This document shows positions 5,101-56,459 of a stretch of DNA of 64,000 bases, piece after piece (the first letter of the stretch is position 1; every line of letters begins with the position of its first letter). The stretch is from the NCBI GenBank assembly GCA_964016885.1, contig OZ024743.1:20212001-20276000 (forward strand), given 5' to 3'. The position numbers and the translations under genes were made by a program. Origin of the DNA: Eledone cirrhosa. Its lineage: Eukaryota. The notes under the pieces were generated by a model. The model ran no database searches. It was not told where the DNA came from and saw only the letters and a list, made by a program, of their open reading frames with translations.

Positions 5101-5167
5101 GTAAAACTATCATATGTTGATATACAATGGAAGTCCATCATATTTATATGTATATATATATATATAT

Positions 5168-5851: not shown

Positions 5852-5852
<1 letters not shown>
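5168..5852 (-). mobile_element. RTE-like LINE 3' fragment (family B)
   Basis: ORFs 5495-5800 and 5334-5540: VENFLYLG, ESVLLYGSETW, RRLRLAGH; flanked by (TA)n; a second copy of its 3' end lies at 15365-15600. Confidence 0.85.
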
Positions 5853-5891
<39 letters not shown>

Positions 5892-6351
5892 TATATATAT
5901 ATAAACTAAATGTGTTTTCACTCTGTTAGAGCGAAAAAGCAATTTTTGTTTTTAATTTTCGGCAAAGCCAGCCATAAAATTACTCGGTATGCTAATTAGC
6001 CGATGTATACTATAGAGAATACTATATATTCTCATGAGGTCTAGTATGTAGCAGAAAAGCAGAAATACACTATCTTGACAAAGGGCAATAACCCTGAAAT
6101 AATTGTAATTGTTGATTGTTTTTCTCTGTTACTGCTAGAGCAAAAGGATGAAGATAGTAATCTAAAACAGTGTTAACAGGTTGTTTGCTTCCAAATGAAT
6201 CAAATATCAATAATATTATTATTATATTATTATTATTTGATATAAAACTCACAATTTCATATATATATATATATATACTGGGTTAGTTCAGATCTAGCTG
6301 TCGAAACGGCCAGAGCTCAGCCGTCGGGGTCCTGACTCTTTTCCTATATAT

Positions 6352-6780
6352 CATCATCATCATCATCATCATCGTTTAACGTCCGTGTTCCACGCTTGCA
6401 TGGGTTTGGACGGGGGTTTTCCCACTTGAGGCAAGAGTGATTGTCTTGCTCGCATAGGACTGTCTGGCAGGTTTTCTACAGTTGGATGCCCTTCCTAACA
6501 CCAACCACATTTACAGTGTGGGTCTGGGAGGTTTTTACCGTGTTGCCTACACGGCCACATTACAGTGTGGACTGTGTGTTTTTTTGTCGTGACACCTACA
6601 CGATCTCATTTGTTTCGGCCTGGATGGTGTGGCACCAACATAACTTTACATAGAGGGGGCGGTGTGGATGGGGTGGGGGTGGTGGGACGGGGGTGTATTT
6701 TGTTAGAGATGCCTACTGACTGTAGTAGGTTTTACTTTGTATTTAGGTAAGGCGGGTCTTCTCTATTACTGAGTACCGCC
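6352..6780 (-). mobile_element. 5'-truncated RTE copy (3' UTR and tail only)
   Basis: Nearly identical to 15631-16066; (CAT)n tail on the plus strand. Confidence 0.9.
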
Positions 6781-6822
<42 letters not shown>

Positions 6823-8429
6823 ATATATGAAAACAAAATTTGTTTTCTCTCTAACATTGTTGATAAGTTAGTGAACAATTTTATATCATAGCGCATTCAG
6901 GAGATTTGGTTTCAAAGGGATTAATTATTATGAGAAATATTAAAGCTATTGGATGAAATTATTCAGACCTACACAAATGTCTAAAAAGTTAAAATGGTAT
7001 GAAAAATCCAATATTTATATGATGGTCCTAATTAAGTACTATTTATAGGGAAATAATTTTATAAGATTTTATCTCATTCAAAATACAGCCACTCTCTGAT
7101 AGGCTTATTATTGAACCCATAGAGTAGGGACTTCCAGTGTTCTTAATCCACAGACAAGCTCCTACCTAACTATTGGGTTGGAGTTGGCCACCCATGGGAA
7201 TGAGCTCTGCAAGCTGGAATGATAATTTCAATGCATCTCCTTCATCATCCTCTAAGGCAATACTCTCCATTCCATCTGCTGCAACCATAAGTCAGTTTGT
7301 GTCAGGAGTTCTGCACACCAGAGAGTGTTCTCCCACATCATCTTGACTTCTATCATTGGGTGGTGAGGTTTGTGTATTCTCTTTCATGTTTTCGTTTTTC
7401 TAACAATTTTATGTTCTTATTTAAATTAAAAGCTTCAAGCCTAAGAGAGCTCCATAAAACTCTTATACCCTTATAATACAAGTTAACATTTGACACTTTC
7501 TTCAAAGTTGAGGCAGTTCAAATTGTATGTAACATATGTTCACAACATTAGTAAAGAATTAGTATTCATGCATCAGCATTTTCTTTAAATTTCAAATAAA
7601 TATGTTAAATTAAAAACTTCTTTGAGATAACATTATTGAATGGGATTAATTTCTTAGTCTCTAAGTCAGAAAAAGAAGAAAATAGAAAACAGATCATACT
7701 AATTTTACTTTTCTTCTTTTACTGCTATTTATCAGAGTTAGTGGGCTTATCCTTTGTTTCTTTAAGAAAAAGATATTTTATTTTGAATTGAAGCCAGAGT
7801 TTTTAGTATAGGTGTTGTTATTTGTTTCTTCTAACTTTATCTGTTTGTTTTAAGTGTTGATGTTGATTTTAAGCCAATAACTTAAAAGTTATTTGAATGC
7901 AATTCAACAATTTTCATAAAAATCTATAATTCACTGGTTATTTTTAAAGTGACAAACTCTGATAAACTTTAAATATTTCAAAAAAACAAAAAAAAAACAA
8001 TGATAAATAATGAATTTTTGACTGATTTCCTAATTTGACATAAGCAGTTTCAATTTGGTTAAAATGTCTGCATTTTTAAACTTTAAACTTTTGAGTCTTT
8101 TGTTTAAATTTTAACATCAATCCTTGCCAATTTCAAACTGACATTTACAAATATAAATATTTTTGTTTTATTCTTAATCACATTGGAATAATGTTAAAAA
8201 TTCATTGTAGCTAATGTAATTGAAAGTATTTAGAGAAAATGCTGCATAACAATGGGTAATGTGACATTCAAGTTTAAACATGGAACTTTATAGATAGCTT
8301 AAGAGGTCTAAGATATTAAATTTATCCTTAAACTGGAGAAGATGATTGCAAAAAAATAAAATTAATTTTGGCTTTACCAAAAATGTTAATTTTCAGAGGC
8401 TGAGAAATCCAAATTTAAATTGTAAGAAT

Positions 8430-9490
8430 CTTCTTCTGCTTCTTCGCCTACTTATTCTTGGGATGGTTGTGGGGACAGAGTCTTCAATGCATACCTTCTA
8501 ACGGGTTCTATCGGAAGCAATCATCTTCCCCAAGCAAGACCAGCTGAGCTCATGGATATAATGCAGCCATCCTGCTTCTGGCTGGTTTCAAAATCTGTCC
8601 AGCAATGCTTTTCGACATAATACATAATTTTGGAACACTGAACTCTCAATTCAAAGAAGTAGTGGCTCTATTTGGAGCAACCCTGATCTTTGATCTAAGC
8701 TGTTTACTGAGTAATATTACTCTTAAGACCCTTCAGAGGAACCTCATTTCAGTTGCACGTATTCGCAATTGCATTCTTTCAGTTATTGCCCATGATTCAT
8801 GACCATATGTAAGGGTTAGCATGAATACTGAATTGAAGATAACGAGTTTGGCTTTTACATCTCCCTCCCTTCTTTTGATGATTGAATGCTGAAGCTGGCG
8901 CATTACTGCACCAGCTGCAGCAATTCTTGCACTTAATTCAGCCACCTGCCTCCTATCACTAATGGACATGGCTCCAAGATACTTGAACTTCTCCACCTTC
9001 TTCAGGGGAACTCCACTCACATGCAGTGTGCACTGTGGAGGCTTCCTTGAGAGAACAGGTGTCTCAGTCACTGCAGCACTGATTTTCATTCCTGTCATGC
9101 AGCATTCAGCAATAAACCTATAAAATGCATGTTGGAGATCACATTCTGATAAGTTAAGTAGTACCATGTCATACACAAATTTCTGCTGACAGATCCTACA
9201 CCCACCAGTCTCAATACCACTTCCAAAACAGCAATGCATGTCAATCCTGTCTATGAATATTATGAACGAAAGATGTGATAGTATGCAACCTTGGCTGAGT
9301 CCTACTCTCACATTGACTTAGCACCATTTCTCTGAACACAAATACTAAGGTATTCACATAGAGTCGTCAGGGCAACAAGAAGTTATCCATTGATCCCATA
9401 CTCCTGCAGAACCTTCTAGAACAGGTCCCGTGAAATATGGCCAAATACCTTTTTAAAGACTAAAAAGCAAGCATGCTCCTCTTGGCAATA
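8430..9490 (-). mobile_element. RTE/Rex3-like LINE RT fragment (pseudogene)
   Basis: ORF 8733-9311: GLSQGCILS, decayed YADD (FVYDM), VEKFKYLG, LTYGHESW..RATEMRFL; (AGA)n-like tail at 8430. Confidence 0.85.
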
Positions 9491-10129
9491 CTAAATAAAT
9501 ATACACACACATATTAATGTGTGTGTATATTTATTTGTCTCATCTCTCACCTTCTTTTCTCTCTGCATTCAGCATGGCCAGAAGTGATATTTGATTATGT
9601 TCTGCATAAATAGAGATTCCCCTCTTCAGTGGTTAGACATGTGAAGCTGTTTTCCTTAATGACACTGTGTAACAAACAAATTTTTTTTCTCTGTCCCTGC
9701 CTTGTAATCACTTTTTTGTGTTGCTTAGGTCCCAAATAAATAAAAGTGCTATTAATCAGTTAAAAGTTTGGGTTTGTAAAAATTCTAAGCTATTCACTAT
9801 AATTATTTGTATGCTGGACTTTAAGTTGTATGTAAGTTTAATTTGCTTATGTTAAATGATTTTTTTATATATGTTTCAGGTTAAATTACAATTATAAAAT
9901 AAAGAGTAATAGCTAAAGAAAATGATAAAAGTGCAATAAAGTATAAAATTGTTATTAAGTGGATTAAAGAGATTTATTGATACTGGATTTTCGCACCCTG
10001 AATAAAGAGTAAGTGGTGTTTTAAGCACAAATTTTCATTAGTATGATTAGTGTTCTTTTATATTATTTAAATATGTATTTCCCTTTCCAATATTTATTTT
10101 GTATTGCATATCAAATTTATTTTCCAAGA

Positions 10130-11360
10130 CAAGTATTCTGATGAAGAGGAGGAGATGGATGCAGAGGACCTGGATTACCTGCCTGAGGTACCAGAAAAAG
10201 TTCCTCACTTCCCAAACCCAAAAGAAGTCAATGGGTCTAACCAAGTCCAATGCAGAGCTATTCGTCTCCAGGATGAAGCAGTGGAACATGGTCAAGGAGG
10301 AAGTGCAGGTGACAAGTCAGAGAAGTCGACACAAACCTTTCTCGGGCTTTTACTCTCTTAGGGATGGCCTCTGCTTCTGCCATGGCGTGCCTGGACTGTT
10401 TGACCTTATTGGGGTGCCGTTTGTGTCCAAGGAGTGGCGGCTATTTATAGACAGCTCCACCACAAGTTTGAAGGCTGTCCTCCTCCACAATGGAAACAAG
10501 TTTCCGACACTGCCCCTAGCTCATTCAGTCTGCCTGAAGGAAGATTACTACAGTGTGAAAGTCCTCTTGGAAGCTCTGTAATACAACCAGTACAATTGGG
10601 AAATCGTTGGCGACTTCAAGATGGTGGCTTTCCTGATTGGACTCCAAGGAGGCTTTATCAAATTCCAATGCTTCCTCTGCCTTTGGGAGAGCAGAACCAC
10701 CTCTGACCACTACATAAGAAAGAACTGGGAGCAGCGAACAGAATTTGTAGTTGGGACCTGGAACGTCATGTGGGAGCCACTGGTTGATCCCAGGATTGTG
10801 CTCATGCCACCACTGCACATTAAGTTGAGGTTGATGAAGCAGTTTGTGAAGGCTCTCAACCAAGAATCAGCCGTTTATAAGTACCTTCTTGAGTTCTTCC
10901 CCAAGTTATCTGAGGCCAAAATCAAAGGTGGAATTTTTGTTGGACCTCAGTTAAAGAAGGTGTTTGAGTCTACCGAGTTCTCCAATAAGCTCCATAGGAT
11001 TGAGAGAACAGCATGTAACTGTTTCAAGGCAGTTGTTAAGGGCTTCCAGGGCAACTACAGAGCTGAAAACTACCAGCAACTGGTGCAGGATCTGATAAAG
11101 GCTTTTGGCGCCATGTGATGCAGGATGTTGCTTAAACTCCATATGCTGGATGCTCACCTGGAAAAATTCAAGGACAATATGGGCGCCTACTCAGAAGAAC
11201 AAGGCAAACGATTCCACCAAGATGTGAAAGAGATAGAACGGAGGTACCAGGGCCACTACAATAAAAAAATGATGGGGGACTATATCTGGGGGCTAGTGCA
11301 AGAATGCGACCTGGACTACAACCGCAAATCCAGGTTCCAGTCATTTCTGACGTGTATAAG
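10130..11360 (+). pseudogene. Chapaev3-like transposase with in-frame stops
   Basis: Motifs WRLFIDSS..SLKAVLLHNGN, GDFKMVAFLIGLQGG..CFLCLW, PPLHIKL.LMKQFVKAL, KLHMLDAHL, GAYSEEQG.RFHQD across ORFs 10099-10581, 10621-11118 and 11125-11415. Confidence 0.85.
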
Positions 11361-11549
11361 TTGCTTTATAAGTATTATTTGTTTTTACTTGTTTGCTTTT
11401 GATAAGCTTGTGTAATACAATAAATATATACTCTGTTGATTTAATTATATGAACTGATAAATTTTTAAAAAATGTGTTTTTTCTTGAAAAATATGAAACT
11501 CCTGACCACAAACCCAAACTTCTGATTAAATAATAGTTTTTTTTTTAAA

Positions 11550-11718
11550 TAATTGTTTCTACTTTCGGCACAAGGCCAGCAATTACCTAGTACATTACTG
11601 GTACTTTATTTTATCGATCTCGTAAGGATGAAAGGCAAAGTTAACCTTGGCGGGATTTGAACTCAGATCGTAAAGGGACGTAACTATACTGGAAAGCATG
11701 TCCAACCCTCTACCATTT
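11550..11718 (-). mobile_element. Meta-domain-like tRNA SINE nested in the Chapaev right arm
   Basis: Reverse complement of the 31799-31985 family (GAGTTCAAATCCCGCC, GCCTTTCATCCTT..GATAAAATAAAGTACCAG). Confidence 0.85.
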
Positions 11719-12475
11719 TTTATAATAATGGGATATAATAAACCATGAAATGACACTTAGAACTGGGGAACAAAAAATATGTTACACAGTGTTATGAAAC
11801 AAATGAGTGTTGACATCAAGAAGGGCCATAATATTCTGTCTCAAAAATCTTCATCCAGCTCATAGCATCATGGAAAAATAAACATAAAATTGATGATGAT
11901 GAGGAGGAGGAGAATAGTAGATATCAGTAAAATCTAAGCATAAATGTATAGAATTATAGTTTTCAGTAACTTCCTCCAAAGAAACTTGCTGCCTTTTATA
12001 GATATTATTATCTACTACTTTACATATGTATTTTCATTACAGCATGAATAAAAAGTAATTATTTTCTTTTTTGACAAATTTAAATATTTTCAGCTTATTG
12101 TTGGAGGATAAACAGTTCTCTAAGAATATATATTTGCTTAAATACCTTATCTAAGTTAGATAATTAATACAATTTTAAAATGATGCCCATTAGCATTTCT
12201 GAGAATTATCATTGCGATAATGACAAAGTTTTTGGCTATTGGTTATTTTTAAATTTTATTAGTAATTGTTGGGTAACAGATAAACACCTATTTTTCAACT
12301 CTGTAATACAGAAATTGATTTTGTATACTTGAATTATCAAGAAGTTTTGTGAAAATAACCCATAGAATTATATTTTTCCATACAACACTTCTAATATGCA
12401 TTATCCCAAAATAAATTTAGTTACATTCTGAAATTACTATCAAGGTGACTTAATGTTTTTATTATTAAAAATTAA

Positions 12476-13220
12476 GGGCAGTGAATTGGCAGTATCAGTA
12501 GAGGGTCGGACGCCATGCTTTGACACATAGAGTTACGGCCCTTGCCATTCTGAGTTCAAATCCCGCCGAGGTTTTACTTTGCCTTTCATCCCTTACGAGG
12601 GTCGATAAAATAAAGTACCAGTAATGCACTGGATAATTACTGGCCTTGTGCCAAAAGTAGAAACAATTATTAAAGATTAGAGAAGGGTGGGGTAGCAGTG
12701 TTGTTAGAGTATCAGACAACATGCTTTATGGCTTACATTACGCCCCTTTCTCCTACTGACGTTAGCTTTGCTTTTCATCCTTACTGGGTCAATAAAATGA
12801 AATACCAGTAATGCACTGGTGTCGATTTAATTGCCTTTCCCCTCTCCCCAAATTGTTGGCCTTCTGCCTAAATCAGAAACCATTATTACAGATTAGAGAG
12901 GTGGATTGGCCTCTGTCACCAGTGTCAGACAAAAAGCTTTGCAGCATTTAGTTACAGCTCTTTATATTCAAATCCCACCGAGGTCAGCTTTGCTTTGCAT
13001 TCTTTAAGTCGATAAAACAAAGTACCAGTCAAGTACAGAGGTTGATATAATCGACTTCTTCCTTCCTACAAATTGCTGGTCTTGTATTTCAATTAGAAAT
13101 CCTTATTAAATATCAGGTGCATTTGCTGGGTCAGTAGAACACCATATGGTTTAGGCCATCCACAGTTCAAATCCCACTAAGATCAACTTTGTCTTTTATA
13201 CCTATGGAGTTGATAACAAT
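12476..13220 (+). mobile_element. Head-to-tail cluster of about 4 Meta-like SINE copies of different ages
   Basis: Units start near 12476, 12684, 12897 and 13115, each with an A-box-like head, CTTTGC..TTCATCC..GATAAAA..AGTACCAG and a TAGAAAC-like end (last copy partial). Confidence 0.8.
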
Positions 13221-13780
13221 CTATAAAATCAATCATAATGATTATGATGATGATCATTATGATTTTATAACTGTTTCCCACTCTAGAATAGTTTGGATGT
13301 GTTGACACAGTCTGAACTAGTTCTTATTCAGAATTATTAAACTCCTAGACATAATGAGGGACCATGTCTTCCTTGTACATTCCATTTTTGGTATGGTTTC
13401 TGAGGCTTGATACTCTTCCTAACACCAATCACTTTACAGTGTGTACTGGGTTCATTTTGTTGTAACCCCAAGACTAGAGAGACTGCCGTGTTCTTAACGT
13501 GAATGAAGTATTCTCTCCTTGATTTTATGTTGTTTCCATTCTTTCAAGGCAAACATGACCAAGAGAGTGAATAGAAGGAAGAGTTATGACTAATAGTGGG
13601 GAAAGAAAAAAGAGTATGGACATGAACAGTGTAGTGTTATTACAACAAAGATGGATGATGGTAAAAAATATTAATATTACAATGTAGTGATCCTTCCCAA
13701 AAAATCATCATATGTCAATTCGAAAAATTAAAAATAAACTCATTATTAATTGCATTTATGGATTGCATTATTAATTGCAT

Positions 13781-13966
13781 TGGTGGATTGGCAGTATCGG
13801 TAGAGGGTCAGACGCCATGCTTTGACGCATAGAGTTATGGCCCTTGCCATTCTGAGTTCAAATCCCGCCGAGGTTAACTTTGCCTTTCATCCTTATGGGG
13901 TCGATAAAATAAAGTACCAGTAATGTACTGGGTAATTTCTGGCCTTGTGCCAATAGTAGAAACAAT
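13781..13966 (+). mobile_element. Meta-like tRNA SINE with TSD
   Basis: GGTGGATTGGCAGTATCGGTAGAG head, B box GAGTTCAAATCCC, TSD ATTATTAATTGCATT. Confidence 0.9.
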
Positions 13967-15364
13967 TATTAATTGCATTTAGTTAGCTTTCATTTTTTTT
14001 AAATCACATATGAAAAGCTCCTTTATCTCACAATGCTATAATTCCATTCCATTCTATTCAGCTGTTTTCAATGGAGGAAGCTTATTTATGCTAGTTGTAT
14101 ACCTACCTTTCCATGCTGGAAAGTTGAATAGGGTGCTCCCATGGTTGAATGATTAATTCTGACCCTGGGCTCCAGTAGAGAACTCAGAACAGATACAGCA
14201 TTGGTTTTTGATATTGGTAATCTATGACCCTAACAGATGAAAGGCAAAGCTGATCTCAACAATATTTGAACTTAGAGTGTAGAGAGTTGAAAGAAATATT
14301 TACTTATCTAATGGTTCAACTAATTTACTACCATACAATACTGTCAAGTGTTATTGAATTGCAGCTTCAAACAAAAATATCTTAAATTAATATAGACTTT
14401 ATAAAAACCAATTTGGGAGAGAAAAGTGAAACAAACCCACTGATGAGACTCAAACAGCATTTGTTGCTTGCAAAGTAACTGTGTTACCAATTACTAAGCT
14501 TTTGTATGCAAGCCAATAGTACTTACTCTGAATACTCTAAATTTTGCCTGATTACTGTGCTGGCAAAGATATGGTGTTCAAATGTTATAGACAGCATGTT
14601 TTCAATTCAAATTGGTGCAATATTGTTGGTATGAAAAGTATAAATGATTAAGAACTTCACCTAAATTTGAACATAGAGCTGTAAGCAAATTCTCACCTAA
14701 GCACTAGTTTCAAATTATCTTCATCTTCCTCTTTGCAAAGAAGTAAGCACTTATTTGGGTTACTTTGTAATTCTGTCATCAGCTTAACATTGAGCTTTAC
14801 TTAACGTTTAAAGATGAACAAGGCACAGTTTTGTTTTCTTAATAGCATTAATCTTTTCTGTATTTTATCTTACGTGTTACTATAATAACTTAGAAGTGAA
14901 TTTTATATTTTACACATACATGTTACTATGAAATTAGTAGTGAATTCTATAAAGAATATATAGCATTGCATGAGAGGAAATGTGGTTAATGAATAGAAGA
15001 AAAAATCCATTTATGCTTAATTAAGTTTTCAAAGTATATGTGCATTTCAAATTCTTCTTTAACATGATTTTCAACAATTTTAATTTTAAATTTGACTTCA
15101 TCAACAAAACATCATATAAATTCTTATTGATACATGCATACATGACAACATACAAAATCATATATTGTAAGAATATATTGTAAGAAAGAGCTAAGTTTGT
15201 CAACATTATTTAGATATTTTGCTTTCTCTTGAATTTAAATTATTCACTATGTGACTGTGTTCTTTTAATGGGCAACTTCTTGATCTATAAACATGTAAGC
15301 ATATTTTAATGCATATTAGTAAACAAATGTATAACTATATATATATATATAATCTATTCTATTC

Positions 15365-15600
15365 TAGGGCGAGTAAAATTCCCGAGATCCATGGACGAGT
15401 TCTCTCCAGCGGCCTCTGTCCCTCATTATCGCTGCCATGTCCAGCATCTCCAACAGACCAGTGTCTGTCCTTAGGGCATCAACATACGTTAACCTTGGTC
15501 TTCCTCTTCCAGTGTGTCCATGTAGGGGCTCCCACAGGAGCACTAAGTGCAATGTCAACTTTGGATGTCAGTCAGCATGTCCAGCTAACCTCAGTCTCTT
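15365..15600 (-). mobile_element. RTE-like LINE family B 3' end
   Basis: Closely matches 5168-5400; ORF contains VLLWEPLHG..GRGRPRLTYVD. Confidence 0.85.
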
Positions 15601-15630
15601 CTGAGTATATATATATAAAGTATAACTTTA

Positions 15631-17335
15631 TCATCATCATCATCATCATCAACGTTTAACGTCCGTGTTCCACGCTTGCATGGGTTTGGACGGGGGTAGT
15701 CCCACTTGAGGCAAGAGTGATTGTCTTGCTCGCATAGGACTATCTGGCAGGTTTTCTACAGTTGGATGCCCTTCCTAACACCAACCACATTTACAGTGTG
15801 GGTCTGGGAGGTTTTTACCGTGTTGCCTACACGGCCACATTACAGTGTGGACTGTGTGTTTTTTTGTTGTGACACCTACACGATCTCATTTGTTTCGGCC
15901 TGGATGGCGCGGCACCAACATAACTTTACATAGAACGGGGTGGTGTGGATGGGGTGGGGGTGGTGGTGGTGGGACGGGGTGTATTTTGTTAGAGATGCCT
16001 ACTGGCTGGAGTAGGTTTTACTATATATTTAGGTAAGGCGGGTCTTCTCTGTTACTGAGTACCGCCAAAGGTCTCGGTCCAGTGACATTGTCTTGGAGAG
16101 GTGTAAGTGTGTGATGTCGGAGTTTATCAGCTCGTCCCAGGTTTTTCTAGGTCTGCCTATTCCGTGACTACCGTCTATCTTTATTGCCCTGCACTTTGTT
16201 ATACAGCTATCGACTTTCATGTGCATCACGTGTCCATACCAACGTAGCCTTCTCTCGAGTAAACAACATCTGATCCCTCTTATCTCTAATTTTTTCCTTA
16301 GTTCGTTTATGCTTTGCCGTTCACGTATATTACTGTTACACATCCAGCGGAGCATGCAAGCTTCGTTCCTCTCTAGTCTGCGTATATCCTCTGCACACAA
16401 TGCCCAGGTCTCACTGCCATGCAGCATTGCTGTTCGTATGCAGGCATCGTACAACCTGCCTTTCATTTTTAGGGAGAACCCTTTAGCAGCTAATAGTGGT
16501 ATAAGCTCTCTGAACTTTTTCCAACCAGTTCTGACTCTAGCTACAGTACTTTCAGAGCACCCTCCCCCACTGCTGATTTTATCGCCCAGGTAACGGAAGC
16601 TGTCCACTATTTCTATAGAACCCTCTGCGCAATTGAAAGAGCTAGTATTTTGTGGGCACTTGCTGCTACTTATTGCACCAGAACACCGGCCACATGTAAA
16701 ATCTATGTTCTTAGTTAGCTTACCTGTGATCCCACTACATCTTTTATGCACCCATACTTTGCATTTAGGACATAAAATGGAGTTTCTACCTATGCCTTTC
16801 CTACACACCGAGCACGACCATTTCCCAGAAGGGATCGCCGCCTTGTTTTCTTTCCTACAAACTAGAACTTTGGTCTTAGCCAGGTTAATTTTAAGTCCTT
16901 TTGACTCTAGGCCGTGCTTCCATGTTTGGAATTTCTTCTCTAGCTCGGCCATTGATTCTGCTATGAGTGTCAGGTCGTCTGCATATAGGAGTTCCCATGG
17001 GCAGCCTGTCTTGAACTCCTCTGTTATAGCCTGAAGGGCAATAATAAATAGTAGGGGGCTGAGAACAGAGCCCTGATGGACGCCAACTTTTACGCTAAAC
17101 TCTTCACTATATTCGTTGTTAATTCTAACCTTGCTGACTGTTTCTTTATACATGGCTTGTATAGCCCTCACAAGCCATTCGTCAACGCCTAGTTTTCTAA
17201 GAGCCCACCAGATAATGGAGCGGGGGACTCTGTCGAAGGCTTTCTCCAAGTCGACAAAAGCTAAGTAGAGGGGTTTACCTTTAGCTAGGTACTTCTCCTG
17301 TAGTTGTCGTACTATGAAAAGAGCGTCTGTGGTAC
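15631..17335 (-). mobile_element. Young 5'-truncated RTE LINE (family A) with open RT and PHD-like finger
   Basis: ORF 16029-17249 (406 aa, reading frame extends upstream): DLEKAFDRV, GVHQGSVLSP, LLYADD, C4HC3 cluster, FRYLG, HGSETW, RRLRWYGHV; 3' UTR ends in (GAT)n. Confidence 0.95.
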
Positions 17336-17389
17336 TTTATATATACATATATATATGTATATGTGTGTGTGTATATATATATATATTAG

Positions 17390-17745
17390 GAGGCACATGG
17401 CTTAGTGGTTAGAGCATTGGCCTTGCAATCGAAAGGTTGTGAGTTCAATTCTTGGACCGGGAGATGTGTTGTTTCCTTGAGCAAGACACTTTATTTCACG
17501 TTGCTCCAGTTTACTCAGCTGTAGAAATGAGATGATAGGGACTGGGGTCTCTATCATTCCACTGCAAAGTGGTCGTGGAGGTGCCACGGCAAAAAAGCAC
17601 CCAGCACTCACTGTAAATGAGGTTGGTGTTAGGAACTGATTCTGGCTTGATTTCTACAGCTGGATAGCTATAGAAATCAAGCCAGAATCAGTTCCCATCC
17701 CACCCTTGCAAGCAGGGAAAAAGCGGCCGTAAAATAAATAAAATG
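17390..17745 (+). mobile_element. CORE-type tRNA SINE with RTE tail, full length
   Basis: GAGGCACATGGCTTAGTGGTTAGAGC...GAGTTCAATTC; same family as 1086-1405; internal inverted duplication at 17632-17695. Confidence 0.9.
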
Positions 17746-17762
17746 AATATATATATACACAC

Positions 17763-17795
<33 letters not shown>

Positions 17796-17904
17796 AAGTT
17801 ATACTTTGGTAGTTTGCAGGTTAAAGAGGCTCATCATATCAATAAATATTGATACTATTAACAAAAGACGTGGGCTGTATGTGGCTGACTGGCTATATAT
17901 AAAT

Positions 17905-17905
<1 letters not shown>

Positions 17906-17935
<30 letters not shown>

Positions 17936-19240
17936 CCTTTTTACGTCGATTCTTCCACGCTAGCATGGGTTATACGGGTTGTCCTGTTGTGGGCAATGTT
18001 AGGTTGGCTGACCTTGTCTTACTCATACGGGAACTGATTCTGGCTTGATTTCTACAGCTGGATGCCCTTCCTAACACCAACCTCATTTACAGTGAGTGCT
18101 GAGTGCCTTTTTTTTCCTGTGACACAGCCACTTTACAGTGTGGGCTGGATGATTTTTTGTTGTGATGCCTCCATGACCACTTTGCAGTGGGAGTGGAGGG
18201 GGTGGGTATATCGTCTATATGCTTTGGCTTCGGCTTGTACCCATGGGAAGTCAGGTCTTCTGTATTATTGCTTGACGCCAGAGGTCATGGTCCTGTGTCA
18301 TCACTGTTCAGAGGTGCAATTGGTCAAGATCAGTTTTTATCACCTCATCCCAGGTCTTCTTGGGTCTCCCCACTCCATAGCTTCCATCAACTTTTAGTGT
18401 TCTGCACTTTTTTATGCAGCTGTCATCCTTCATACGCATCACATGTCCATACTAACGCAACCTCCTCTCCTGCACACAGCATTTGATTTCTCTTATGTTC
18501 AGGCTGTCTCTCAGTTCATTTATGCTTTGCCGTTCACGTATATTGCTATTACACATCCATCGGAGCATGCAAGCTTTGTTTCTTTCTAACTACGCAAGTC
18601 TTCTGCACACAATGGCCAGGTCTCACTACCATGTAACATTGCTGTTCGTATGTATGCATCATACAGTCAGCCTTTCATTGTGAGGGAAAAGACTTTCGCA
18701 GCTAGCAGTGGCAGTAGCTCCCTGAACTTCTTCCATCCCGTTCTTACCCTAGTTATTGTACTTTCAGAACACCCACCTCTGCTGCTAATTTGGTCACCTA
18801 GGTAGCAGAAGCTGTCTACTGTTTCTACAGAGCCCTCTAAAAGTTTGGTAGTGCTTTTTTCCTGTGGCTGTTTGCTGCTTACTGTCCTGGTGCAGATGCT
18901 ACATTTAACGCCTACATTCCTAACTAAGCTTCCTTAGATCCCACTACATCTCTTGTGTACTTATAGTTTCCATATGGGGCAGAGGATAGAATTCCTACCT
19001 ACACCTTTCCTACATACTGAGCAAGGCCATTTCCTTGAGGGGATCTGAGTTCTGTTTTCTTGTCTACTTACAAGGACCTTAGTCTTCGACAGGTTGACTT
19101 TGAGACCCTTTCTTTCTAATCCCTGCTTCCATGTTTGGGATGTCTTCTTTAGTTCCACCATAGATTCAGCTATAAGTGTAAGATCATCTGCATACAGAAG
19201 TTCTCATGGGCATCTGGTCTTAAACTTCTGTTATAGCCAG
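17906..19240 (-). mobile_element. Decayed RTE family A copy
   Basis: Colinear with 34598-35873 and the reverse complement of 43200-44460; frameshifted RT, WPCSVCRKGVG motif. Confidence 0.9.
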
Positions 19241-19244
19241 CAAT

Positions 19245-19336
<92 letters not shown>

Positions 19337-19472
19337 TCCTAACTGCAGCGGCAAGTGGTTTCAGCTTGTGGGTTCAGAAAGCCTTTGCTAAGCACACATG
19401 CTGAAACTGTTTGGCCCCATGGTCAGGATTTTACCTATCTATGTGTGTATCTAAAAAAGTCTAAAGTCTGTC

Positions 19473-19640
19473 TTAACCCTTTACATTTAAACTGGCCATA
19501 TCCAGCCAGAATTCTCTCACCTATGTCTGTTCAAATTGGCAATAACCGGCTGATGTTAAGTTATTGTTCTCAAAATAAATAATATCAAAATCTCATAGAT
19601 TCGATATTATGTTAGGTAAAGTGTTTACTGCGAAAATACA
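19473..19640 (+). mobile_element. Possible piggyBac-like MITE left end
   Basis: TTAA followed by CCCTTT terminus; no matching right end found nearby. Confidence 0.3.
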
Positions 19641-19683
19641 ATAGTAAATATAGAGTAATGTAAATGTCAGAAGGCTCATTTTA

Positions 19684-19920
19684 TCGGTGCTTATCTCAGT
19701 TTCATGATGTGAAGCGACTGAGAGTACAAGACTCCTCTCTGGACAGGACGCCAGTCCATCACAGAGTTAAACACCCAGCTATTGCTGGTACTCATTTTCA
19801 GCTGAATATACTGGTGCATCGTGAAATGAAGTGTTTTGCTCAAGAACACGACATGCAACCTGGGAATGAAACTCATGACATTATGATTGTAAGTCCAACA
19901 CCCTTACCACTAGGCCACGT
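19684..19920 (-). mobile_element. Second CORE-type tRNA SINE subfamily
   Basis: Minus strand GTGGCCTAGTGGTAAGG (A box), TTCTTGAGCAAAACACTT (CORE-like), and a different tail containing GATGGACTGGCGTCCTGTCCAG. Confidence 0.75.
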
Positions 19921-19977
19921 GTGTGTGTGTGTGTATATATATATATATGTATATATATATATAAATATATATGTATA

Positions 19978-20010
<33 letters not shown>

Positions 20011-20106
20011 TAGAAAATATATAGCTTTCACCGTATTTTTAACTAAAGGAATTTTAGCTTGATAACGGGGTTTAGAACCCTCAGATAAAGAGGAAAAGAT
20101 GAGTAT

Positions 20107-20177
20107 TGACGTACATGGGAGTCGAACCCACATCTGTGGTTATCGCGACCACTGTGCTACCATTACAGCAACACATC
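20107..20177 (-). ncRNA. tRNA-like cloverleaf (copy 1)
   Basis: Reverse complement of 20576-20646. Confidence 0.75.
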
Positions 20178-20575
20178 TCCCATCTCTTTCCATTCAAATT
20201 AGAAACTACATTCTTGGCGAGTTTAAATAGCAAGTAAGTATGTTTTGAAACAGTGAGCGAGTTTGAAATTAGAAAATATATAGCTTTCACCGTATTTTTA
20301 ACTAAAGGAATTTTAGCTTGATAATGGGGTTTAGAACCCTCAGATAAATGGAAAAAGATGAGTATTGACGTACATGGGAGTCGAACCCACATCTGTGGTT
20401 ATCGCGACCACTTATCTGAGGGTTCTAAACCCCGTTATCAAGCTAAAATTCCTTTAGTTAAAAATACGGTGAAAGCTATATATTTTCTAATTTCAAACTC
20501 GCTCAGTTTCAAAACATACTTGCTATTTAAACTCGCCAAGAATGTAGTTTCTAATTTGAATGGAAAGAGATGGGT

Positions 20576-20646
20576 GATGTGTTGCTGTAATGGTAGCACA
20601 GTGGTCGCGATAACCACAGATGTGGGTTCGACTCCCATGTACGTCA
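20576..20646 (+). ncRNA. tRNA-like cloverleaf (copy 2)
   Basis: GATGTGT TG CTGT AATGGTA GCAC A GTGGT CGCGATA ACCAC AGAT GTGGG TTCGACT CCCAT GTACGTC A; one D-stem mismatch; T5 run about 10 nt downstream. Confidence 0.75.
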
Positions 20647-20773
20647 ATACTCATCTTTTTCCATTTATCTGAGGGTTCTAAACCCCGTTATCAAGCTAAA
20701 ATTCCTTTAGTTAAAAATACGGTGAAAGCTATATATTTTCTAATTTCAAACTCGCTCACTGTTTCAAAACATA

Positions 20774-23402
20774 TTTAGCAGTATTAGTTATTATTGTAGT
20801 CGCCACTTTAACAGAGTAGATGATTGAAGGTCGTTAGTTGCCAGTGTGGTAAGTGATAGTATCCTCGTTGGATTATCTTGTTGACATAGACGTGAGGGAA
20901 GGTCCCTCGATCTATTTACCATCTATTTACAATATTCCTTTCGTCAGGTCGCCAATTCCAGCAGCATTGATTATAGATGTTATTGAGACACGAGTAACAT
21001 AATAATGATTTCAACAGCAGTAATTAGAAATGAAATGTTTGTTTATTTATATGGTTGAAGTTACAGATAAAAAGAGGCGAGGCTAGGGTGCAAATCTCAC
21101 CGTTACATTATGCGTGTTGCTGGCTTGAAGTTTCCGGTACAAGAGAGATTCTTCAAATCTTCGCGGGGAATTTTTTCCTCCGGGCGCGTAGGGATACATC
21201 CTCTTCCACTGGCGCTGATTGGCTGAACTGAGCCAAATCACGCACAGAGAATGTATGTGAGCCCGCGGAATGTAGGTCACTACATCACCTCCGACCAGAT
21301 TTTCAGCCGAAAATCGATAACGAAGAAACCAAGGACCCACATATTATTGAATCAGCAAGAACAAATGCTGAAAGAACACATCAGTGAAAAAATAATTGAG
21401 CAGAAAGATTCATGCAAGAACAAAAAAAAATTAGGCGCGACGGGCCGTGTTGAGCCACTGTCAAATGACTAGCTGTTTTGTAGTTTAAACGAGACCCTCA
21501 AGGGCCTACCAGAAAACAGATAAAGTCTGATATGGGAGAAGTTGCTGTTCTTGCATTAAATGTTAATGGTAAGCGTTGCACCAGTAGCTGTGAACGAAGC
21601 TATTATGGTAGTTTACCAGTGCTGGCGAGAAAATGATGGCCCCCAGATGTATTGTCGAATGTGCTGTGGAGCCAGGAAAAAATGGCTGGTTGCTTTTTGT
21701 AAAGAAAAAAAAAGGCAAGTTTAATCAGTAGGTGGGCTGCAGTGTAAATTCCATAATTCGGGCGAATCCACAGAAGTGGCTGAAATATCGACAAGTCCAG
21801 TTCAATTTGTTGCTTTCCCAGCGAGTCGGGCAAAAACAACAAGACGGATGGCCGTCATGGACGATCAGTGTGCAACGAGATGCGAAGCTGTTTGAGTTCA
21901 GCTGCAATTAGTATTCTCGTGTTGCGGTGCCTGTTTGAATCCAGTGGATTAAGCTCTGTGAGCTGCTAGCATGTGACAGCATCTCAACCAGGTGAAAAGG
22001 GACTCGCAGAAAATTACGTTTGAAGAACATATACCAAGAACAACATGTTGGTGTGTGATAAAAAAAATGTGTGCATATGCAGGCATGTAAAACAGCAAAG
22101 AATGTGAATGAACAAAAACCATTAGCAAGCAAATAGCAAAAGAGCACAAAACAAGTAAATGCATTCTACAAAGAAATATGTGAATGTAAGAATCTTATAA
22201 TTCAAAGTCAATCTAAGGGAGCAGAGAAATTGCCCAATAAGTTCAAAGTCAAATAGTTCACACATCACCAGTGTACAGACACTAGTTCTATCTGAAAACT
22301 GAAAAAGAAGTTTGTTAATGCCGTTAGGGGTTGGATGTATGGTGCTTTTGTGAGATTTCGTGGCCATCTTGTGTGGCATAAGGTTGTGTTGCTTATTGTT
22401 AAAGCAAAGTCAAAGAATCCTCTGTAGAGTAGCGGTCACCAAATATGGCAGACACGTCTGACGCCATAATGGTGCGAAAACTACTGTCTCAAATTCTGGC
22501 GGGGGGTTATGTAGCGGTTGTCTCCCAACCCCAATAGATGAACAACATCTAGACGGGAAGTAGAACCCTTTCTGTAACTTCCGGCAGAGCCCTATAAAAC
22601 GAATAGCCTTCGGCTCTCTCCCTCTCATTTGCCCTTCCGGCGCCTGGCCTTAGCCAGGCGTCTCGCGTTCGCCTGGCAATCAAAACGGTATCTACTAACT
22701 TTGCTTCATTCTATCAACTATACTGTTCTATCTATATCCATGATTGTTAATTAAATATTATACACACAAACCATGTCTCTTTGTTACATTCATACAACCC
22801 AGTATCTTCGCTATATTGGTAACCCTGACGTGATACGAACACGCAGCCGTTCATCACGTCGGGGTCACCACTTTAGCAGTATTAGTTATTATTGTAGTCG
22901 CCACTTTAACAGGGTAGATGATTGAAGGTCGTTAGTTGCCAGTGTGGTAAGTGATAGTATCCTCGTTGGATTATCTTGTTGACATAGACGTGAGGGAAGG
23001 TCCCTTGATCTATTTACAATATTCCTTTCGTCAGGTCGCCAATTCCAGCAGCATGGATTATAGATGTTATTGAGACACGAGTAACATAATAATGATTTCA
23101 ACAGCAGTAATTAGAGATGAAATGTTTGTTTATTTATATGGTTGAAGTTACAGATAAAAAGAGGTTACAAAAGGAAATGTGCCGTTAAGCCGGCGAGGCT
23201 AGGGTGCAAATCTCACCGTTACATTATGTGTGTTGCTAGCTTGAAGTTTCCGGTACAAGAGAGAGATTCTTCAAATCTTCGCGGGGAATTTCTTCCTCCG
23301 GGCGTGTAGGGATACATCCTCTTCCACTGGCGCTGATTGGCTGAACTGAGCCAAATCACGCACAGAGAATGTATGTGAGCCCGCGGAATGTAGGTCACTA
23401 CA
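20774..23402 (-). mobile_element. Non-autonomous LTR retroelement (Gypsy-like) with 4-bp TSD CATA
   Basis: Direct repeats 20774-21283 and 22872-23402 (minus strand TGTAG...CTAAA); PBS TGGTGACCCCGACGTGA complementary to tRNA-Trp; CATA at 20770-20773 and 23403-23406; no recognisable gag/pol ORF. Confidence 0.9.
22423..22848 (+). mobile_element. Second, unrelated LTR-like segment with its own extended tRNA-Trp PBS
   Basis: TGTAG start at 22423, CTATAAAA TATA-like box near 22592, ATTAAA near 22750, CTATA end at 22815, then TGGTAACCCTGACGTGATACGAACACGCAGCC. Confidence 0.6.
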
Positions 23403-23467
23403 CATACTTACTTGCTATTTAAACTCGCTAAGAATGTAGTTTCTAATTTAAATGGAAAGAGATGGGT

Positions 23468-23538
23468 GATGTGTTGGTGTAATGGTAGCACAGTGGTCGC
23501 GATAACCACAGATGTGGGTTCGACTCCCATGTACATCA
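23468..23538 (+). ncRNA. tRNA-like cloverleaf (copy 3, best paired)
   Basis: 7/4/5/5-bp stems, A box TGGTGTAATGG, B box GGTTCGACTCC, 7-nt loop CGCGATA with G33 and T37 (non-canonical), 4-nt variable loop, T5 terminator. Confidence 0.8.
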
Positions 23539-23675
23539 ATACTCATCTTTTTCCATTTATCTGAGGGCTCTAAACCCCGTTATCAAGCTAAAATTCCTTT
23601 AGTTAAAAATACGGTGAAAGCTATATATTTTCTAATTTCAAACTCGCTCACTGTTTCAAAACATACTTACTTGCC

Positions 23676-23740
<65 letters not shown>

Positions 23741-23835
23741 TAAAAATATATATGTATATATATATATACGTATATATATGAAAGACGTAAAATAAGAAAA
23801 TTTTAGAAATTAAAAATTAACTTACTAAAATTTTC

Positions 23836-23917
23836 ACTCCAACTAATTAGTTTCTGTAATGGGATAAATATAGTTACACAATGTAACTATCGAGAATTCA
23901 TTACGTCATCAGAGAGT
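23836..23917 (-). ncRNA. Type I hammerhead ribozyme (copy 1)
   Basis: ACTCT CTGATGA cGTAATG..CATTACa GAAAC TAATTA GTT GGAGT. Confidence 0.8.
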
Positions 23918-24333
23918 CTATTCTCAGCTAAGTTCCCAGACAATGCACGGACACTAGGAACCCATATAAAAATAATAATTCAGTGGATGTAGTAAGCACT
24001 GAAAAAATTCACTGCCTCTGGTCAGTAGTGGATTCTAAAGAATCAATCACGTGACACTGAGGTTAGTCAGTTAGGAGTGGGGTGGTATTATGACAAGAGC
24101 CTACTACTACTACTATGAATTAGCAGTAGATTTGGCAAGTTTGCTCAACAAATAATTTGGAGATAAATATAGAGAATTAATACATCTACCAACAGATGTA
24201 CACTAATACTAGTAAATATATAAGTTATGTCAAAGTACCTAGGTGGTTCAATGCAGGGGGATGCAGAACAATTATATGAAAGACGTAAAATAAGAAAATT
24301 TTAGAAATTAAAAATTAACTTACTAAAATTTTC

Positions 24334-24415
24334 ACTCCAACTAATTAGTTTCTGTAATGGGATAAATATAGTTACACAATGTAACTATCGAGAATTCATT
24401 ACGTCATCAGGGAGT
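24334..24415 (-). ncRNA. Type I hammerhead ribozyme (copy 2)
   Basis: Stem I ACTCC/GGAGT, core CTGATGA and GAAA, stem II extended by an ATAGTTACA/TGTAACTAT hairpin, palindromic stem III, GUU cleavage triplet. Confidence 0.85.
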
Positions 24416-24477
24416 CTATTCTCAGCTAAGTTCCCAGGCAATGTGCGGACACTAGGAACCCATATAAAAATAATAAC

Positions 24478-24706
24478 GACTTGTATCAGAGCTCCTTAGC
24501 AATGGTGCCAATTGACTTTCTAGGGTTCTTATCAATAGATTCCTGCACCTTTCATATATATTTGGATGTTCTGATGGTTTTAAAACTCTTAGTAGGTATT
24601 TTACCTTCGGCTACTGCTGTAGAATCCTTGTCAGTGGCTTGAAGTTCTTTGCGAACTTTAACAACAAAGGACCGTGCAACTTTCAGGAAGCAAACAATCC
24701 CTAAAA
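24478..24706 (-). pseudogene. Tc1/mariner-superfamily transposase N-terminal HTH fragment
   Basis: Translates as IVCFLKVARSFVVKVRKEL...TIRTSKYI*KVQESIDKNPRKSIGTIAKEL. Confidence 0.65.
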
Positions 24707-24708
24707 CA

Positions 24709-24741
<33 letters not shown>

Positions 24742-24745
<4 letters not shown>

Positions 24746-27700
24746 AAAAATTGAACGGGAACAAAACAGAGAGGCAGTACGAACAAAGGTTTATTAGTTT
24801 CACGCTCTTGAGAGTGGGGTGGTGGTGGGGAACGACGTTTCGGGCATAAGCCCTTCTTCAGGTGAAAAGTGTGTGGGAAGAGAGTTCCAAGGGTGTGTAG
24901 GGGAGTGGTGGAGAGACATAGAAAAAAGGGGGTGAGAGGAAACGGTACAAATGAAATTAAATATAAAAGCATAATAAAAATAAAAATAAACATGAAGTAA
25001 AACAGGTGGTGGAAGGGTATAGGGGTGGTGGCGGGTGGAGTGGGGAGAGGGAGGCGGGGTGTCTGAGCGGGGAGGGCTGAAGGTGGTGTGTGTGTGTGTA
25101 TGTGAAAGTAAGAGTTGGGGGAAGAACGGGGTTGCATGTTCAGGAAGAGGTGTGTGTGTCGGGGGGGGAGAGGATTCCGGAGGCTGAGTGCGTCAATATG
25201 TGGTGATATGGACGTGTGTGTGTGGTGTTTATGCGTGTGTGGATGTAGGTGGCATGTGGGAAAAAAATATTTTTTAGTGTATGTCAGTTGGTGAGTCCTT
25301 AAGGTAGTTCTGTAGAGGATGTGGTGGATGCTGGGTAATATCCTTGGGATCTGGTGGATTCTAGGGATCTATGTTCAATATGTCTAATCCGTGGTTGGTC
25401 GGAAGAGGGGAGATGTGGGGTGCGCACGCAACAGGAAGTGGTCAGAGGGTCAAGGCAGGAGGAGGGTTGTGTGTCTGTGTGTGCGGGGAGGTGGTCAGAG
25501 ATAAGGGCATAGCAGCAGTCGGGTAGGATGGTAAGTGAAGAAAGTCGGTGTGTCGGTGTGTGCGGAGGTGCGGCGGACAGGGGAGAGGATGGGTAGGTGT
25601 GAAAGTTGGAGTGAGGAGGGCGTGTGTGTGTATTAGTAGAAGTGTTAGTGGGATGTGTGTGTGTGTGAGAAAGGGTGTGGATGGAGCGGGGAGAGAAGGG
25701 TGTGGGGGCCGGTGGAGGGAGTGTAGTGTACTGGTGTGTGTGTGTGCGTGTTTGGATGAGTGTGTGTGTGTGGTGAAGGAGGTGTTAGTGGGTGTTAGTA
25801 TACTGGAGGTGGGGAAAGGGTTGAATGCAGGTGTGAGTGGGGGTCAGTGGTGGTAGGGTGTGTAGAGTGGGTGGTGTAAGTGGGTGTGTGCGTTCGTGTG
25901 CGTGAGGTCGGGGGTGTTAGTTGCGGGGTGGTGGGGTGAGGGTTAGTGGTGGTAGTAGGGTGTGTTAAGTGTGAGTGCGTGTATATATGTACCGGTGGGT
26001 GTGTGCGTGTGATAATGGGAGGGGGAGAAGAAGGGAGGGATGTTAGTATGTTAGTTGGCGAAGGGTGGTCGGGTGTGGGGTGGAAGTGTTAGTATTGTTA
26101 GTTGTGGGTGGGCGGTGAAAAGGAGGGGTGTGTTAGTGGTGTTAGCGGGGGATATGAGTGGGGGGAGGGGGGCGGTCGAAGGCTAAAGGAATAAGAGTGG
26201 AGAGTTCAGGCCGGGGGGAGTGTGGGTCTGTAGGGTGAAGATGGTTCGTTGTTCGACCCTGAGGAGAGTGGCGGGTGTTCCGTGACATTGGAGTAGGCCA
26301 CAGACTGTGAGGTAGTCTGCGGAATGTCCAGGGGCACCAAAGTGGCGGGCGATGGGGGAACTACTACCGAGACGAATATCTCGGAGGTGTTCGGTAAACC
26401 GGTCCGCCAGGCGACGTCCAGTCTGTCCGACGTAGGTTGCGCTGCACTCCGTGCAGCGAAGTCCGTAGACTGGGTTGGAGGAGGTGCAGCGGAAGGCGTG
26501 CCGGACAGAGCGAGAGTGGCCGTTGGGACCCTGGAAGATGGTGGTGTTGGTGATGTGGGGACAGGTTTTTGCAGCGGGGCCTGGAACAGGGAAGGGAACC
26601 AGGGGGGGTGAGGAGAGCATGGGTTGGGGGGTAGGGAGCTGTGGAGGGTGCGGAGATTGCGTGCGCGTTTGAAGGAGGGGAGTGGTGGGGCTGGGAAGAT
26701 GTGGGAGGTGGAGGGGTCGGACTGGAGGCGTTGGAAGAGGCGAAGGATGGTGCGATGGAGGGGTGGTAGGTGATAGGGAAGGGGAGACGGTGGGTGGGTG
26801 TGGGGTGAGGGTGGTGGAGCGGTGGACAGCACGGGTGCGGGTGAGAGCGGGGGGGGACCTCTGCGGATGAAATGGCTGACTAGGGAAAGGCCTGGGACTC
26901 AAAGTCAGCATCTCGGCTACAGAGGCGGCGGATCCTGAGGAGTTGGGAGTAGGGAATAGAGTGTTTAGTGTGTGTAGGGTGGGAAGAGGTGAAGTCGAGG
27001 TAGGAGTGGGAGTCGGTGGGTTTGAAGAAGGCGGAGGTGACGAGGGAGTGATGGGAGGGGTCGAAGGCGACGAAGATGTCTAAGAAGTGGATGGGTGGTG
27101 GAGATAGAGGAGGTGAAGTGGAGGGAGGGGTGGAAGGAGAGAAAGGAGTCGAGCTGTTCTCGGGTGAGGGTCGTGGCTCCAATACAGTCGTCGATGTGAC
27201 AACCGTACAGTTCGGGCGTGGGGCCGATGTACTGGGAAAAGATTTGGGCCTCAACATGGCCAACAAAAAGGTTGGCATAGTTTGGGCCCATTCTTGTACC
27301 CATGGCTACCCCCGTGACCTGTTGGTAAAACTCACCCGAGAAGGAGAAACAGTTGAGGGTGAGGACCAGCTCGGCGAGGCGAAGGAGGGTGGGGTGGAGG
27401 GGATGGGGGAGGGGCGAAGGTCGAGGTAGTGCTTGAGGGCACGTAGGCCGTCGGCGTTGGGGATGACGGTATAGAGGGACTTGATATCTAGGGTGAAGAG
27501 GAAGGGCTGTGGGCCGGGTGGGTAGGTGAAGGAGTCGAAAAGACGCAGGGCGTGGTTGGTGTCGGAGATGTGGGAGGGGAGGGTGGTGACAAGGGGGGGG
27601 GAGCATGCAGTCAAGAAAGGCGGAGATGAGTTCGGTGGGGCAGTTGCAAGCGGAGACGATGGGGCGGCTGGGGTTGTCGGGTTTGTGGAGTTTGGGGAGG

Positions 27701-27846
27701 AAGTAGCTGGTGGGGGTGCGGGGGGTGCGGACGATCAGGTGGGAAGCGGCGTGGAGGATGAGGGAGGAGGAGACAAGGTGTTGGATGGTGGAGGAAACTT
27801 GTTATTGGTAGAGGGGTGTGGGATCGGAGGGTAGAGGGCGGTAGAA
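24742..27846 (-). mobile_element. Penelope-like element 1 (GC-rich, 5'-truncated, frameshifted RT plus C-terminal GIY-YIG)
   Basis: YFLPKLHKPDNPSRPIVS, FTLDIKSLYT, GVAMGTRMGP, HIDD, FKPTDSHSYL; endonuclease VYGLRCTEC..YVGQTGRRL.DRF.EH..GLN; long 3' UTR with HHR and AATAAA; (TA)n on both sides. Confidence 0.95.
24830..24864 (-). ncRNA. Minimal hammerhead motif in the PLE 3' UTR
   Basis: CTGAAGA AGGGCTTATGCCC GAAACGTC with palindromic ACGT stem III; stem I is weak. Confidence 0.75.
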
Positions 27847-27892
27847 ATATATATATATATATATATATTTATTTATTTAATTATATATATAT

Positions 27893-28042
27893 ATATTGCC
27901 AGAAGTAATGGCAGAACACATTCACTGTTTGGTTGGTTTTCGCTTCTGTATCTTTTATAAAAGTGAAAACCAACCAAACAGTGAGTGTGTTCTGTTATTA
28001 TTTCTGGCAATATTACAACAATATGACCCTCCCCAAGAATAG

Positions 28043-55923: not shown

Positions 55924-56076
55924 GTTATGCAAGAAATGCTTAGGATTATCCTGAATGCAGTAATGGTTAATTACTACACTAGATAGAGTCGACGTACGGT
56001 GAGGCGTTACTCAACGAGTTATGGAAGAATAGTTAAAGAAACTTAGTTTCTGATTCTTCTGTATTCCGGAGTGTAG

Positions 56077-56412: not shown

Positions 56413-56459
<47 letters not shown>

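Follow-up and report, generated by a model that had tools for sequence, protein, structure and literature searches.

A minus-strand LTR retrotransposon of Eledone cirrhosa containing an inverted PPT-LTR-PBS cassette with a long tRNA-Trp primer site

The stretch of Eledone cirrhosa DNA analysed here (64,000 nucleotides, hereafter the window) contains a minus-strand LTR retrotransposon of 2,629 bp (20774-23402; designated element B), within which lies an inverted PPT-LTR-PBS cassette of a second, repeated family (designated family A). The identification of the insert as such a cassette is based on the presence of its own PPT ahead of its LTR (LTR-A) and its own primer-binding site (PBS) behind it, on a step in sequencing depth and on contigs that diverge from the window at its edges. 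The composite is real and well bounded, and the tRNA-Trp primer sites of the two families face each other in a hairpin.

Anatomy of the host element

Element B is bounded by a pair of direct LTRs, a 3' LTR of 511 bp with the termini TGTAG...CTAAA (20774-21284, minus strand) and a 5' LTR of 531 bp (22872-23402, minus strand), which differ by 8 substitutions in 499 aligned sites and by 3 indels. A preliminary description of the locus had placed the minus-strand LTR at 22872-23402 correctly and had left its partner unmentioned. A 4-bp target-site duplication, CATA, was found at both ends of the element (20770-20773 and 23403-23406, plus strand), and the empty target site is kept in a neighbouring unit of a tRNA-like array, where the uninterrupted junction lies at 20225-20260. 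The replication signals occupy their normal places, with an 18-nt tRNA-Trp primer site (22853-22870, minus strand; 18/18 matches) behind the 5' LTR and a purine-rich tract, read from the sequence, before the 3' LTR (PPT region, 21285-21303, minus strand). In sequencing run X9, 393 reads had mixed loose ends behind 21284 (agreement 0.47).

No gag or pol frames were detected in element B, the longest stop-to-stop frame being 95 aa. The internal region at 21304-22490, in which no gene was detected, was repeated in the sequencing-run data (records from all four runs compared) and gave no match to a family or a protein. Pfam searches matched none of six frames of element B and one of 12 pieces (E 0.32), and one frame, which is Gag-like, had no match among 1.84 billion proteins. 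Two stretches of the element resemble what we take to be a CsRn1-type Gag and a gypsy integrase tail; these candidate coding remnants were rejected, given the lack of a credible Pfam match and of any protein match for the Gag-like frame. The anatomy and the frame and Pfam searches support the earlier proposal of a chimeric element with two tRNA-Trp sites and no detected coding capacity.

Three PBS-like 13-mers were present in the 64 kb, all of them within element B. The third of these is degenerate (22429-22441, minus strand; 11/13). It is preceded by bases resembling the end of LTR-A, and the plus-strand peptide of the same stretch presumably recalls a gypsy integrase tail.

The element sits in a junction between array units, 64 bases upstream of one tRNA-like copy. 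The array, at 20009-20777 and 23403-23669, is composed of units of roughly 260 bp in tandem and inverted arrangement, with a tRNA-like gene in each unit. ARAGORN called Ser(CGA) at 20107-20177 (minus strand), 20575-20647 (plus strand) and 23467-23539 (plus strand), with Rfam scores of 34-47 bits; the genes called lack a U at position 33, however, and their variable arm is short. Other features of the window are a 204-bp direct repeat, whose copies (23775-23978 and 24273-24476) share 98% identity at a distance of about 500 bp and may represent a further small element, a region of strong GC skew (0.52-0.56; 24001-28000), where the GC content reaches 57% and so departs from that of the remaining sequence, and long near-perfect inverted repeats with short loops at 2506-3289 (365 nt arms, 96%) and 56074-56415 (160 nt arms, 98%).

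Boundaries of the inverted cassette

Reads and contigs from four of 11 sequencing runs (X1, X4, X5 and X9) were compared with positions 21150-23450, and read depth was used for placing boundaries only, not as a copy number. LTR-A was found to start at 22510 and to extend to 22815 on the plus strand, a length of 306 bp with the termini TGTAGCG...CGCTATA, a TATA-like box near 22593 and ATTAAA near 22750. The start at 22423 given in the preliminary description was rejected on the basis of a PPT match, the depth profile and a contig of a second organism. The purine-rich region and TGTAG at 22510 matched the PPT and TGTAG of element B at 20 of 27 ungapped positions, and none of 2714 window tiles matched as well. 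Depth rose near 22500-22536 and not at 22423; between the bins 22382-22458 and 22536-22612 it increased from 4465 to 21989 in X1 and from 68 to 1782 in X5. A contig from run X4, which represents the second organism, was unbroken over 22396-22501 and hence across 22423. The LTR termini are complementary at 6/7 positions for a start at 22510, compared with 5/7 for a start at 22423. The PPT region of family A was assigned to 22491-22509 (plus strand) from its likeness to the element B PPT and from X4 and X5 contigs, which match from 22491 and have other sequence upstream. It was because of the wrong LTR-A boundary that the PPT before LTR-A and the second copy of the LTR of element B (LTR-B) had been missed.

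In the run data LTR-A was present at higher depth, with many variant records and with differing upstream and downstream sequence in contigs; no paired LTR-A copy with a target-site duplication was obtained from these data. Its U5 end resembled that of another locus, L213 (79% over 76 nt, E 4e-9). No target duplication was found around the LTR-A cassette, which is flanked by PPT and PBS instead. A nested insertion plus deletion was rejected as the sole cause of this arrangement, since it does not place both a PPT and a PBS on one LTR. The two LTRs had been described as unrelated. This holds for their bodies, between which no homology was found (47 of 300 shuffles scored as well), but not for their termini and PPT; family A thus appears, as judged by sequence likeness, to be related to element B in PPT and termini and not in the LTR body.

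The hairpin formed by the two primer sites

A hairpin with a tRNA-Trp PBS in each arm had been proposed and was confirmed at 22817-22870, the two sites matching the tRNA complement at 18/18 and 28/32 positions; the z-scores on the two strands were -4.78 and -5.48, and none of 200 shuffles was as stable. The window contains further hairpins of similar size, the first 60 of 63 matches in a scan being spread over five places, so that the hairpin alone is not unusual; the special feature is the tRNA identity of its arms and not its size. An Rfam search with the 37-base arm alone gave no match, the arm being too short. The hairpin is likely to be a by-product of the meeting of two tRNA-Trp sites.

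The suggestion that the hairpin masks its own PBS held in part. At computed equilibrium the mean unpaired probability was 0.07-0.08 over both sites, which are thus buried, but the masking is not absolute, as a simple model that leaves out tRNA unfolding gave an opening cost of 28.7 kcal/mol for the element B site against -37.2 kcal/mol for the tRNA duplex. According to this model, priming at the element B site would be possible despite the hairpin. For the family A site, with tRNA unfolding again left out, the opening cost was 29.5 kcal/mol against a duplex of -28.6 kcal/mol (18 bases) or -54.2 kcal/mol (32 bases).

The long tRNA-Trp primer site of family A

The primer site of family A (22817-22848, plus strand) corresponds to tRNA positions 76 to 45. 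The reference for this comparison was the complement, with CCA, of a eukaryotic-type tRNA-Trp(CCA) gene at locus L218, which is not the host's own. This gene belongs to a cluster of eukaryotic-type tRNA genes in records with bacterial titles (L218:1-1424, with six genes called, and L217), a cluster that is probably host contamination. The site matched the reference at 28 of 32 positions, the mismatches being at site positions 5, 10, 19 and 20, two of which fall within its first 18 bases. The match of about 32 nt, reaching past position 58, that had been reported was thereby borne out, with 12 of 14 matches at site positions 19-32 (p about 3e-6 at a fixed place). The mismatch at site position 19 lies opposite A58. 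Site position 20 differs identically in all four comparison loci (L211, L213, L219 and L220) and probably reflects an isodecoder difference. One X5 contig tracks the window to 22854 and continues into other sequence, which suggests, on the basis of this contig, that free copies of family A may have the long site.

The comparison loci were obtained with search patterns in which the CCA-complement start was unspecified and the extension was required, an A at site position 19 being required in addition for L211 and L213. Long sites starting from the CCA complement were found on the minus strand of L211 (1998-2028; 27 of the first 31 positions), L213 (703-738; 31/35), L219 (689-728; 37/39) and L220 (202-235; 31/33), and these sites sit behind LTR-like ends. 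As the patterns demanded the extension, these matches represent recurrence and not frequency. The base opposite position 58 is A in L211 and L213 and T in L219 and L220. Long CCA-starting sites accounted for two of nine metagenome matches, the other seven being set aside as without a primer site, and for two of four genome-collection matches. In viral contigs, nine of 86 PBS-core matches start at the CCA complement and none of these nine extends past 18 bases; three of them have A at site position 19, so this base is not diagnostic alone. The L211 site precedes a long frame with a DUF1759 hit below the cut-off (E 0.0047) and no match for the frame as a whole. Some of the sequence upstream of the L219 site has further copies in the same assembly (5 other matches), with no LTR pair shown.

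A PBS usually has a length of 8-18 bases (PMC13524379). Reverse transcriptase misincorporates at m1A58 (PMC12140624), and m1A followed by A is described as giving mainly T and G signals and low C (PMC4787781). The A at site position 19 together with 13 further bases of tRNA copy would fit a read-through that became fixed. Such a read-through trace is likely to be an inherited feature of family A rather than the event that made the junction, because similar sites are found in four unrelated loci and because the X5 contig continues past the site. Against an inherited read-through stand the A at position 19 in three of the nine viral 18-base sites, the T in L219 and L220 and the use of a reference tRNA that is not the host's. 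Moreover, the PBS of Ty1 and Ty3 is reported not to be inherited from the primer (PMC5371799), so that fixing a read-through would need a rarer route.

The joint between the two primer sites

The element B site ends at 22853, its 18th base, and the joint lies exactly there. The start of the family A leader and the junction occupy 22849-22854 (plus strand), of which 22853-22854 (AT) can be assigned to either side, probably as a microhomology; this 2-base overlap follows from the X5 contig, which leaves the window after 22854, and from X9 reads, which rejoin it at 22853. The latter, 95 reads that all have one start, join 21930 to 22853 and represent a form of element B without A. Among 24 of about 2,030 pieces, no read or contig bridged the PBS/PBS joint at 22849-22853, and both matches of a junction-pattern search (2/2) were chance-like. 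In X9 the positions 22475, 22484 and 22504 have similar depth, from reads with 8-14 starts, and the join between the internal region and the PPT of family A would accordingly be present in raw X9 reads. In the second organism, X4 contigs tile 21296-22501. One X4 contig has 354 unlike bases, where the window has 361, and then matches 22863-23060, the PBS match in this organism beginning only at 22863. The frame is therefore common to both organisms and the slot differs.

Origin of the composite

We consider the chances about even that element B captured the inverted PPT-LTR-PBS of family A by a strand-transfer error during reverse transcription. The position of the joint exactly at base 18 of the element B site favours such an error, and retroviral plus-strand synthesis is described as stopping at base 18 of the PBS (PMC8599865). 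According to this model, B and A would have been copied in trans by the same Ty3/gypsy (CsRn1-like) machinery, as primer, termini and PPT are common to both. Plus-strand strong-stop DNA of element B, ending at PBS base 18, would have paired over 2 bases with an A template of plus sense, for which a one-LTR circle, a tandem read-through or a plus strand still being synthesised could be considered; synthesis would then have run in reverse across the PBS, LTR and PPT of A and finally switched back to B. The 32-base site of A would date from an old read-through of m1A58, at which a wrong base was inserted, and would already have been fixed in family A when the capture took place. The composite would continue to be mobilised as an element of the B type, with priming from the 18-base site in spite of the hairpin. 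Dead-end plus-strand DNAs with a tRNA copy have been described to accumulate in Ty3 particles (PMC5371799), and one-LTR circles to form in particles (PMC7197481).

When the cassette is compared with a captured strong-stop DNA, the order of parts (PPT, LTR, tRNA copy) fits and the left junction is unplaced, which, together with the Ty1 and Ty3 PBS not being inherited from the primer, weakens the capture model. Against it stands further that 22396-22501 is unbroken in the second organism, so that the A-derived part may reach left of the PPT primer, and that the 354 unlike bases and the PBS match from 22863 in that organism are not explained by a single capture. In addition, the native leader of A is represented by one contig and the A-less form of B by reads with one start, and the PBS/PBS joint has no bridging record among the pieces compared.

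A capture at the DNA level seems to us rather unlikely. Family A DNA, as a tandem array or a one-LTR circle, would have served as repair template for a break in the leader of B, or would have been inserted and then trimmed by deletion, the hairpin being incidental and reverse transcriptase having no role in the joint. Tandem arrays, described as common in small non-autonomous LTR elements (PMC6934838), have PPT-LTR-PBS as their inner unit, and end joining is compatible with the 2-base overlap. Rearrangement is evident at the locus itself, where the units at 20009-20777 are in inverted and tandem order, and the left junction may be far from the PPT. Such a capture gives no reason for the joint to lie exactly at PBS base 18, however; no tandem array of A was seen in the window, and the cassette is without a flanking target duplication.

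The presence of opposed PPT-LTR-PBS sets, each with its signals in correct order, could alternatively indicate a two-way element, of which a circle or tandem dimer would be copied either as the B-form or as an A-form with two LTR-A ends, the inner slot being kept and refilled under selection. We regard this as improbable. The A site could still bind a primer according to the energies given above, and the X4 contig of the second organism keeps the PPT-proximal bases and the frame (354 against 361 bases). Yet no A-form was seen, the 354 bases may be either another LTR or plain leader, the A site has two mismatches in its first 18 bases, and passive carriage in a successful B copy accounts for the persistence of the cassette. 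More ambitious, and very doubtful, is the proposal that the inner LTR of such a two-way element is exchangeable and that either circular permutation is copied by tRNA-Trp-primed machinery, in a lineage where m1A58 is passed by the reverse transcriptase and the misread base has become fixed in the 32-base site.

The preliminary description had attributed the junction to aberrant strand transfer with read-through into the primer tRNA; with a single m1A58 read-through end joined to B, the 32-base match would be private to the junction. The match does end 4 bases from the site of B, with its mismatch opposite A58, and over-long plus strands are reported to be unable to transfer normally (PMC8599865). 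This origin was not supported by the data and is very doubtful in turn, since a contig of family A carries the window sequence to 22854 before it differs, and long sites recur in L211, L213, L219 and L220, that of L213, whose U5 end is like that of LTR-A, having the same A. An assembly artefact, by which two repeats were mis-joined via their palindromic primer sites, would fit the lack of a bridging record for the PBS/PBS joint (24 of about 2,030 pieces) but is highly improbable given the coherent LTR pair and target duplication, the same part order on one contig of the second organism and the X9 reads over 22475, 22484 and 22504, which suggest an internal-to-PPT-A join in raw reads.

Comparison with known retroelements

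A Trp PBS, a 4-bp target-site duplication and TGT...AAA or TGT...ATA termini are given as marks of the CsRn1 clade (PMC2582038). The clade (CsRn1, PwRn1, AgCR) resembles element B in its tRNA-Trp PBS, 4-bp duplication and PPT before the 3' LTR, and the termini of both LTR-B (TGT...AAA) and LTR-A (TGT...ATA) fit (PMC2582038). Judged from PBS, duplication and termini, element B would work like members of this clade and may belong to it. It differs from them in the lack of detected gag and pol, in the second, inverted PPT-LTR-PBS set and in the 32-base site, the last of which is not described in the text consulted (PMC2582038).

The nearest described oddity is cqgypsy_1 of Culex quinquefasciatus, a gypsy element in which, like here, CCA-bearing reverse-transcribed tRNA lies head-to-head at the PBS region (PMC3286476). 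According to that account it contains two whole tRNAs (Lys and Glu; 149 bp) and a 26-base duplication and no foreign LTR (PMC3286476), whereas in the composite the two Trp complements are partial and follow one LTR each.

TRIMs are non-autonomous and keep PBS and PPT, as does the composite (PMC6934838, PMC10886601), and a 4-bp target-site duplication like that of element B is described for animal Helenus (PMC10886601). The size given for TRIMs (<1000 bp, repeats of 100-250 bp; PMC6934838) is exceeded here, at 2,629 bp with LTRs of 511 and 531 bp. In the TRIM arrays described (biv-TRIM), inner repeats lie between the PPT and the next internal part and are direct and of the same family (PMC6934838), whereas the inner LTR here is foreign and inverted. 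Helenus (TRIMp3) is reported to have a tRNA-like sequence inside its LTR (PMC10886601); ARAGORN and Rfam found no tRNA inside the LTRs of the composite, and their calls were in the flanking array only.

The cassette is like the strong-stop DNA of retroviruses and of Ty1 and Ty3 in consisting of an LTR and a tRNA copy with a PPT ahead, and the site of element B ends at base 18 (PMC8599865, PMC5371799). In the strong-stop DNAs described there, copying that continues beyond A58 yields a dead-end product or has a match only to U54 (PMC8599865, PMC5371799), whereas the 32 bases found here are genomic and are met again at other loci. In the literature searched, which was mostly open-access, neither a foreign PPT-LTR-PBS cassette in inverted orientation nor a fixed PBS mismatch at position 58 was found to be reported.

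Implications for LTR retrotransposon replication

The 18-base length of the primer site of LTR elements is attributed to the stop at m1A58. The CCA-starting sites described here are 31-39 bases long and in three of five cases have a wrong base opposite A58, which suggests that a read-through product has become fixed in the genomes of some invertebrate LTR elements; the position of the plus-strand stop in such elements becomes directly testable. An inverted cassette joined at base 18 of another element's primer site may be the fossil of a particle-internal intermediate. Cassette capture may, in addition, be a route by which non-autonomous elements acquire a convergent promoter and double-stranded RNA and, if the A-form exists, the composite would be an LTR element copied from either strand.
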